A stretch of DNA of 64,000 nt. It comes from a bacterium (GTDB taxonomy: Bacteria > Vulcanimicrobiota > JAZDOK01). A model generated the notes under the pieces. That model did not search any database and was not told where the DNA came from. It worked only from the letters and a program-made list of their open reading frames with translations. A program made the position numbers and the translations under genes. Of this stretch, positions 41,309 through 41,712 are shown one piece after another (the stretch's first letter is position 1; every line of letters starts with the position of its first letter). Location of the stretch: the NCBI GenBank assembly GCA_043798715.1, contig JAZDOK010000004.1, forward strand, positions 114,537-178,536. The letters run 5' to 3'.

Positions 41309-41407
41309 ATGGTATTTGAGTGGGACGAAAATAAATCACAGCAGAATATCAAGACGCATGGTGTATCCTTCCAGGAAAGCGCGACGGTATTCGGGGACCC
41401 GCTATGA
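41309..41407 (+). pseudogene. Truncated BrnT-like toxin; only the N-terminal 32 codons remain
   Basis: [32 protein letters not shown] followed by a stop. The deletion breakpoint is not visible; the stop codon overlaps the brnA start. Confidence 0.55.
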
Positions 41408-41646
41408 AGAAGGCTGAAGAAATGCGTAAAGAGTATCGCCGTGAAGACCTGGGCCAGGGTACAAGAGGGAAGCACTACAATGAATATGTGAAGGGCTCGA
41501 ATCTTGTTTTGCTCAGCCCGGATGTAGCCGCGGCTTTCCCCGACGATGATTCGGTAAATACCGCTTTAAGAGGGTTATTGGATCTCGCCAAGAGAACTAA
41601 AGGCCCCAAAAGCCGCCCCAGCCGACGCACAGGAACGCGCGGCTGA
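41404..41646 (+). CDS. BrnA-like antitoxin
   Basis: [17 protein letters not shown], at the position expected after brnT. Confidence 0.55.
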
Positions 41647-41712
41647 GCTTTGTCGTAAAGGGCTCTGACCCTTTTCCCCCTATTCTGTCAATTGTGTAGA
41701 CGTGACCCCTAT
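41619..41712. repeat. Junction repeat, modules Y-X-Z; module Y overlaps the 3' end of brnA
   Basis: Y = cagccgacgcacaggaacgcgcggctgagctttgtcgt (identical at 44517-44554). X = ctctgaccctttt. Z = tattctgtcaattgtgtagacgYgacccctat (also at 43040-43071 and 44585-44617). Confidence 0.85.

Follow-up and report, generated by a model that had tools for sequence, protein, structure and literature searches.

The locus raises three connected questions: how a brnT-like toxin gene came to be reduced to its first codons, whether the intact gene that follows it encodes the matching antitoxin, and why the last nucleotides of this second gene recur near 44.5 kb with no antitoxin gene beside them. It lies on the chromosome of an uncultured bacterium represented by a metagenome-assembled genome (MAG); the whole 64-kb stretch of DNA that was analyzed is referred to as the window, and positions are counted from its first nucleotide. 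The surrounding island carries toxin–antitoxin (TA) and defense genes, namely higBA, the truncated brnT (brnT′) with its antitoxin gene, a PDC-S01 ATPase gene, a RhuM/PDC-S05 gene and a NERD-domain gene; no recombinase, transposase or integrase gene was found among the island genes. The coordinates of genes, hairpins (H) and recurring modules (X, Y and T) are collected in Table 1.

Table 1. Features of the brnT′–antitoxin locus and of the adjoining part of the island.
Feature	Position	Strand	Basis or remark
Module X and hairpin H1	40328..40395	+	87% identical to 44447-44515
higA (40451-40750) and higB (40766-41047)	40451..41047	-	Profile match; promoter TTGACA-17-TACTAT at 41082-41054
Perfect 7-4-7 palindrome GTCTAAT-TATT-ATTAGAC	41269..41286	.	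Read from sequence; 22 nt upstream of stub ATG
brnT′ stub, 32 codons then TGA	41309..41407	+	ATG at 41309; PF04365 match; 164-column gap relative to full-length genes
Deletion junction CT/ATGA	41402..41407	+	Alignment with full-length genes; stub TGA overlaps antitoxin ATG (41404-41406)
Intact 80-aa antitoxin gene	41404..41646	+	Family without Pfam model; synteny with BrnT in homologous loci
Module Y copy 1: last 30 antitoxin nt (41617-41646) including stop, plus 10 nt	41617..41656	+	40/40 identity with copy 2; predicted fold
Hairpin H2, core GTAAAGGGCTCTGACCCTTTTC at 41655-41676	41650..41680	+	REP-like
Motif T copy 1, CCCCTATTCTGTCAATTGTGTAGACGTGACCCCTAT	41677..41712	+	Abuts ATPase gene stop codon
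AAA_14/DUF4143 ATPase gene (PADLOC candidate family PDC-S01)	41714..42976	-	Between T copies 1 and 2
Motif T copy 2	43036..43071	+	Preceded by degenerate H-like hairpin 43002-43014
RhuM-family gene (PADLOC candidate family PDC-S05)	43362..44348	-	Between T copies 2 and 3
Module X and hairpin H4	44447..44515	+	3′ end is left junction of detached antitoxin fragment
Module Y copy 2: detached last 30 antitoxin nt (44516-44545, PSRRTGTRG*) plus 10 nt	44516..44555	+	40/40 identity with copy 1
7-nt TCGTCGT and hairpin H5, core 44561-44582	44556..44586	+	7 nt common to L001, absent from copy 1
Motif T copy 3	44587..44618	+	Repeat comparison

BrnT/BrnA is a type II TA system with its prototype in Brucella abortus; its toxin and antitoxin are described by the Pfam families PF04365 and PF14384, and it is frequent on Acinetobacter plasmids. 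Among the plasmid records that match BrnT, 517 of 590 come from Acinetobacter. The sequence-only reading had taken the short first frame of the locus for the initial 32 codons of a BrnT-like toxin and nothing more, and profile comparison bears this out: the stub matches Pfam BrnT_toxin (PF04365, DUF497) with E = 6.1e-9 and 36.5 bits (cut-off 34.5), over profile positions 1–27 of 77 only, so that a complete domain of about 90 aa is not present. It is 66% identical to residues 1–32 of the 90-aa BrnT of a related locus (L002). With a full-length BrnT from a related locus as the tblastn query, the window was aligned over residues 1–32 only (E = 9e-12), and no significant match to further BrnT-like sequence was obtained in the rest of the 64 kb. 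Full-length toxins of this BrnT subfamily match the solved BrnT-like toxin 7vd7 (E = 3e-13).

Aligned with three full-length genes, the window displays a single clean gap of 164 columns that extends from just past ...GGGGACCCGCT (codon 32) to the antitoxin ATG. As this alignment shows, an internal deletion of 164 nt removed brnT codons 33 to approximately 87, fusing ...GACCCGCT to ATGAAGAAG. Since 164 is not a multiple of 3, the stub is read out of register with the native 3′ part of brnT and stops at once at the TGA at 41405–41407, which, as had also been read from the sequence, overlaps the start codon of the downstream gene. With residues 33–90 of a 90-aa BrnT missing, about two thirds of the sequence, the toxin is presumably dead. 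A programmed frameshift fusing stub and antitoxin was considered and dismissed, the slippery heptamer being absent at CCGCTATGA.

The downstream gene is intact and, in agreement with the sequence-only reading, an orphan: its 80-aa reading frame is complete and has no toxin partner in the window. Its proposed identity as brnA holds only in the sense of a BrnT partner recognized by synteny. No model of Pfam, NCBIfam or PADLOC, including BrnA_antitoxin PF14384, matches the 80-aa protein, and only one of 71 family members reaches E = 0.13 with PF14384. In an hhalign profile comparison with an annotated Acinetobacter BrnA, 44 columns that take in the strand-helix-helix part align at only E = 0.054. 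The AlphaFold2 monomer model of the protein contains two helices (39–44 and 48–65) at a low pLDDT of 60, and a structure-based classification was dropped because of this low model confidence; sequence search found no solved structure among the relatives of the protein.

Public data contain 776 homologues of 80–89 aa. The family has an invariant core (EY..DLG.G.RGK...), of which the window protein retains all invariant columns, and a conserved basic tail, ending in ...PSRRTGTRG* across the antitoxin family. Synteny was assessed on the DNA around six homologue clusters, comprising 37 loci. Of these, 24 have an intact 90-aa PF04365 gene directly ahead of the homologue, the two genes sharing 14 nt; two further short contigs (L050 and L053) end within an open brnT frame, and the remaining 11 carry secondary brnT lesions. 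Because homologues follow an intact, overlapping BrnT gene in 24 of 37 loci, the 80-aa protein is, by synteny, the cognate antitoxin of this BrnT subfamily. Read in this way, "brnA" is a positional label only, and the protein is not a recognized member of Pfam BrnA_antitoxin.

The locus resembles BrnT/BrnA systems in that the stub belongs to PF04365, the toxin gene comes first and the antitoxin gene second with the two overlapping, and the strand-helix-helix part of the antitoxin aligns with the C-terminal part of Acinetobacter BrnA. It differs in that the antitoxin falls outside PF14384 and NCBIfam, has 80 rather than 104 aa with a conserved basic C-terminal tail, and is accompanied in the window by a destroyed toxin. 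The family was found in only one of 72,556 plasmid records, a Kovacikia megaplasmid, and viral contigs searched for the antitoxin family and for hairpin H contained neither. This is an environmental antitoxin family with a regular BrnT partner that is missing from both Pfam and NCBIfam, and annotation pipelines therefore label such loci "solo BrnT" or overlook them.

Orphan antitoxins and decaying chromosomal TA loci are known, and retained antitoxins of this kind have been linked with the idea of anti-addiction. The window locus is similar in that the toxin is inactivated and the antitoxin reading frame retained, and relatives repeat this outcome by other lesions. There are at least four other independent toxin-inactivating lesions, all with an intact antitoxin: brnT was replaced in two cases, interrupted by a nonsense codon in a third and shortened by an in-frame deletion in a fourth. 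In one locus (L020) the antitoxin and its flanks are as in another (L021), with brnT swapped for rearranged response-regulator DNA and homology between the two resuming 3 nt before the antitoxin ATG. In a 1.2-kb contig (L001) the upstream sequence is unrelated and homology begins within a few bases of the antitoxin ATG. The nonsense mutation, at brnT codon 52, is shared by seven contigs of the P0036 cluster (L038-40, L044-47), and the in-frame brnT deletion, 204 nt long and leaving a 22-aa stub, by four contigs of the P0040 cluster (L048, L049, L051 and L055).

To judge from these sequences, a dead toxin beside an intact antitoxin is a common end state reached through differing lesions. The window locus is a tidy but ordinary case of TA decay in a mosaic defense island, and its value is that of a base-resolved example of chromosomal TA decay in which the toxin was lost first and the antitoxin retained. 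Four of the rearrangement junctions, those of the window, of L001, of L020 and of the L048 type, fall no more than about 12 nt from the beginning of the antitoxin gene, which is suggestive of its start codon as a second recurrent junction, in a sample too small to tell a hot spot from selection. Between the antitoxin genes of the window and L001, about 2% divergent over the gene body, there are five substitutions, four synonymous and one non-synonymous, and this excess of synonymous changes fits continued constraint on the antitoxin. It would persist as a harmless orphan, possibly one that protects against incoming BrnT-bearing elements.

How the orphan may still be expressed is suggested by the signals around the junction. 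The former operon may have been controlled through the palindrome ahead of the stub, a candidate operator. A simple sigma-70 scan of the plus strand at 41048–41310 found no consensus promoter for the stub, and the same scan returned a good promoter for the divergent higBA. In relatives the native Shine-Dalgarno sequence of the antitoxin sits in the last brnT codons, and it was lost from the window with the deletion. The antitoxin might still be produced from the old operon signals through termination-reinitiation at ATGA, with GGGGA, 8 nt upstream, as an alternative entry for its translation. Compared with other orphan or decaying TA loci, this ATGA translational-coupling arrangement at the deletion junction is particular to the window locus. 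A 14-nt exact match, CTTGAATTTTCCCT, was also observed between 41233–41246, upstream of the brnT stub, and 44622–44635, directly after T copy 3; the pair may be due to chance (E 0.05–0.12) or be what remains of the leader of a second operon.

The 3′ end of the antitoxin gene leads to the second part of the locus. A repeat of about 38 bp, recurring at 44517–44554, had been noticed in the sequence alone; it is real and slightly longer, with 40 of 40 nt identical (module Y), but only 30 nt of it lie inside the antitoxin reading frame, and the similarity continues to 41713 and 44619, giving copies of 97 and 104 nt with 88% identity and one 7-nt indel (blastn E ~1e-28, well past chance). The copies stand 2.9 kb apart. 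Each opens with the final 30 nt of the antitoxin gene, continues through hairpin H, which is REP-like, and closes with the 36-nt motif T. The possibility that this is merely a generic repeat unrelated to the gene, raised at the outset, applies to about two thirds of its length, as H and T occur elsewhere too (40373, 43036 and 44493); it does not extend to Y. In L002 Y is matched in 30 of 32 nt, with no H after the gene and a different sequence past the stop codon. Because the encoded tail is conserved in the family and Y is kept in L002 to this degree, Y is genuine antitoxin coding sequence rather than a repeat into which the reading frame happens to run. The detached copy therefore holds a real antitoxin coding end with no antitoxin gene alongside, as the sequence-only reading had it.

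Relative to copy 1, copy 2 has an additional TCGTCGT and six substitutions in H–T. The additional heptanucleotide is shared with L001, so copy 2 is not a fresh duplicate of copy 1; copy 1 itself apparently lost the 7 nt through slippage between two GTCGT repeats. Sequence comparison points to the detached copy (44516–44619) as the end of another allele of the same antitoxin gene with its 3′ flank, of an L001-like type. The same differences bear on the suspicion that a repeat-induced chimera or collapse during assembly made the truncated toxin or the detached copy. Such an artefact deserves mention because the source is a MAG and short interspersed repeats are classic misassembly points, but it is highly improbable: the two copies, set apart by several substitutions and a 7-nt indel, do not represent a single collapsed locus, the independent contig L001 confirms the junction of antitoxin and H, the brnT deletion junction lies at no repeat, and equivalent toxin lesions are present in many independent assemblies.

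The stretch 44447–44619 is a mosaic in which X-H4 directly abuts Y-H5-T3, the junction falling at the 3′ end of H4, where the hairpin end and the antitoxin tail share CC(C) microhomology. Near 44.5 kb no further remnant of either brnT or the antitoxin gene was found. Module X was examined as a degraded antitoxin 3′ end and rejected, its local alignment score being no better than those of shuffled sequences. With moderate confidence, we favor a reading in which the window combines a decayed BrnT module with its orphan antitoxin and the scar of a second antitoxin-bearing cassette, lost by illegitimate recombination at the REP-like hairpin. A second cassette would once have stood at 44.5 kb, and recombination between the end of H4 and CC(C) within the antitoxin tail would have removed it, leaving the scar; this cassette may plausibly have been a complete second brnTA. 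The order of events is deduced from one genome and the 1.2-kb contig L001.

The layout of the island also suggests a different history, the main rival to a lost second cassette. Three T copies in the same orientation bracket the ATPase and RhuM genes, and all repeat modules are co-oriented, as might be expected if Y-H-T were the 3′ boundary of a brnTA cassette that had been copied during the insertion or rearrangement of the ATPase and RhuM genes via H and T. The perfect identity of the two Y copies and the lack of any further antitoxin or brnT remnant around the detached one would suit such a copied flank, and similar repeat-bounded brnTA modules exist in L038 and L039. We nevertheless regard it as rather unlikely. 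The TCGTCGT that it shares with L001 and its six substitutions set copy 2 apart from a plain duplicate of copy 1; on the left it is bounded by the end of a different H hairpin rather than by T or an evident duplication boundary; and the island is devoid of a recombinase or transposase gene.

The lost second cassette, which we continue to prefer, has its own difficulty in the identity of Y. Y is identical at all 40 positions whereas its flanks are 87–91% identical, an outcome with a chance of about 1–2% at the flank rate. Such perfection is unexpected for an old scar and could reflect a recent copy, gene conversion or constraint; set against a flank divergence of 9–13%, it fits comfortably neither with a scar nor with a copied flank. 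Constraint could take the form of a functional nucleic-acid element: Y is predicted to fold as a GC-rich hairpin (CAGCCG..CGGCTG), and this 9-bp hairpin, which includes the stop codon, might be a 3′ mRNA stabilizer, a terminator or a recombination site kept by selection both in the gene and in the detached copy. Y is indeed the same in both window copies and in L001, with flanks differing by 9–13% and the gene body by about 2%; it is nearly preserved in L002 (30 of 32 nt), whose gene is otherwise 73% identical, and the hairpin is predicted in every fold. However, the fold z-scores of −0.9 to −1.3 are not significant, there is no covariation and one pair is broken in L002, the family members L018 and L024 have unrelated 3′ ends, and at about 2% divergence the window and L001 would in any case be expected to agree at all 40 nt. 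A selected role of Y as nucleic acid is therefore improbable.

Clear copies of hairpin H (CGTAAAGGGCTCTGACCCCTTTAT) lie at 40373, 41655, 44493 and 44561, and a degenerate one near 43002; H is a palindrome of the form AAAGGG-N7-CCCTTT with one co-varying inner pair (T..A versus A..T) and the head GTAA. An exact-pattern scan of representative genomes returned nine stretches with H, all from Gammaproteobacteria (Thiohalocapsa, a Xanthomonadales MAG and unclassified gammaproteobacterial MAGs). In one gammaproteobacterial MAG (L011, 142–912) GTAAAGGGCTCTGACCCCTTTA flanks an IS200-like (RAYT-type) gene: H on the minus strand at 142–163 precedes a Y1 transposase gene at 187–912 (PF01797, E = 9e-14), and H on the plus strand occupies 891–912, so that the flanks are inverted. 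Two other stretches (L004, 254–491; L009, 6765–7028) hold RAYT C-terminal remnants that end in H, the last transposase codons running into the hairpin GTAAAGGGCTCTGACCCCTTTA, and in L005 and L008 H forms inverted doublets.

REPs flanking RAYT transposase genes in inverted orientation are a described arrangement (PMC2817692). Like the elements of the REP/BIME/RAYT group (PMC2817692, PMC3116915), H has the form of a short, imperfect palindrome whose head and loop are conserved; its gammaproteobacterial copies inversely flank an IS200-like Y1 transposase gene and form inverted doublets, and, as in BIMEs, further short motifs join it in a mosaic. Unlike REPs, it has the head GTAA instead of GT(A/G)G, and its window copies are few, co-oriented and limited to a 4.3-kb stretch of the island: the four clear copies all lie within 40373–44582 in the same orientation, none was found elsewhere in the 64 kb at up to five mismatches, and the high-copy dispersal of REPs is not seen within the window. 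The setting differs as well, the window host not being a gammaproteobacterium and the 64 kb containing no RAYT gene. The EttA protein of the host is 97% identical to that of a MAG labeled Desulfobacterales, and 93–99% identical to EttA of its close relatives (P0122-P0125, P0129). H probably came with the cargo of the island and would not be a resident genome-wide REP. A literature search for the hairpin or its would-be encoded peptide returned nothing relevant. An interpretation of H as a plain intrinsic terminator was set aside: the stems are weak, and a lax scan picked out no copies other than H5 and the degenerate one at 43002.

Because H is REP-like and homology blocks switch at it, both in the window and in L001, we infer that it would serve as an exchange point for the shuffling of modules X, Y and T and of the genes that lie among them. 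The proposal that the end of brnA is a recurrent recombination point needs qualification: homology blocks switch at the hairpin beside the antitoxin 3′ end, and this hairpin, not the gene end itself, appears to be the recombination-prone point. A comparable organization is found in groundwater contigs L038 (1029–2565) and L039 (559–2126), each with a brnT carrying the nonsense mutation and its antitoxin gene, an intact brnT with its antitoxin gene, and higB, divided by mosaic repeats of 56–89 nt that switch at a different hairpin, GCCCCTGCGGGGC. Beyond what had been read from the sequence, the analysis thus provides the exact deletion, an unannotated family of BrnT partners, the REP-like hairpin and the frequency of equivalent toxin loss in relatives.

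Integron arrays and the pdif modules of Acinetobacter also present small TA and defense genes set apart by short repeats of one orientation, with homology switching at these repeats, and higBA and brnTA, both kinds present in the window island, are typical pdif-module cargo. Neither system accounts for the repeats found here. Integron attC sites were rejected given the lack of GTTRRRY/RYYYAAC cores, of any GTT in 41617–41713 and of an integrase gene, and the mixed gene orientations; Xer/pdif modules were rejected as T and H have no 11-6-11 palindromic site. We speculate, with little confidence, that H and GCCCCTGCGGGGC mark the sites of exchange in a hairpin-bounded cassette system by which TA and defense genes are shuffled outside integrons, possibly served in trans by a Y1 (RAYT-type) enzyme and spreading across phyla with its cargo. 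If this were true, that system would have left its footprints in the detached antitoxin end abutting H and in the independent breakpoints clustered both at H and at the antitoxin start. The REP-like hairpin, with its switches of homology blocks, offers a lead, and only a lead, on the shuffling of small defense and TA genes.

Several minor features accompany the repeats. Motif T gave five matches in public metagenomes, all in unrelated contexts. Directly after T copy 2, at 43063–43092, there is a tandem duplication of GACCCCTATATCCTT; its motif GACCCCT(A/T)TAT resembles the 3′ half of hairpin H, and partial tandem copies of a similar kind follow H in Thiohalocapsa (L007 and L012). The nearby sequence 43195–43275, with ...GTTCGCCCTGAGCCTGTCGAAGGGC...GGTTCGACAAGCTCACCACGAACGG, encodes "SLSNHER"-type peptides when read on the minus strand, and we take it to resemble a short repeat of many environmental genomes. 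A search of 38–47 kb for known RNA families gave a single chance-level match at the same place (AaHKsRNA41, an Aggregatibacter sRNA, E = 0.43), and such families were rejected.

On the minus strand, X-H (44480–44509; 40361–40395) contains a promoter-like GGGACA-18-TAGAAT (9/12), in both copies about 100–125 nt upstream of a minus-strand gene, rhuM in one case and a TPR-like gene in the other; the X-H module might thus supply an outward promoter. The TPR-like gene (38968–40203, minus strand) encodes a 411-aa, weakly TPR-like protein whose next-best homologues are only 58–59% identical and are spread over several phyla (Armatimonadota, Auribacterota, Bryobacteraceae). It probably belongs to the variable region, whose start may then be placed near 38.1 kb, at a drop in GC content. 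Farther to the left, two paralogous stretches (21353–22740 and 24096–24988; 78–87% identity, 2.2–2.7 kb apart) represent an unrelated local gene duplication. At the other end of the island, a 42-nt direct repeat (44735–44776 and 45773–45814, 79% identical) brackets the NERD-domain gene at 44966–45766 in the manner of a cassette boundary.
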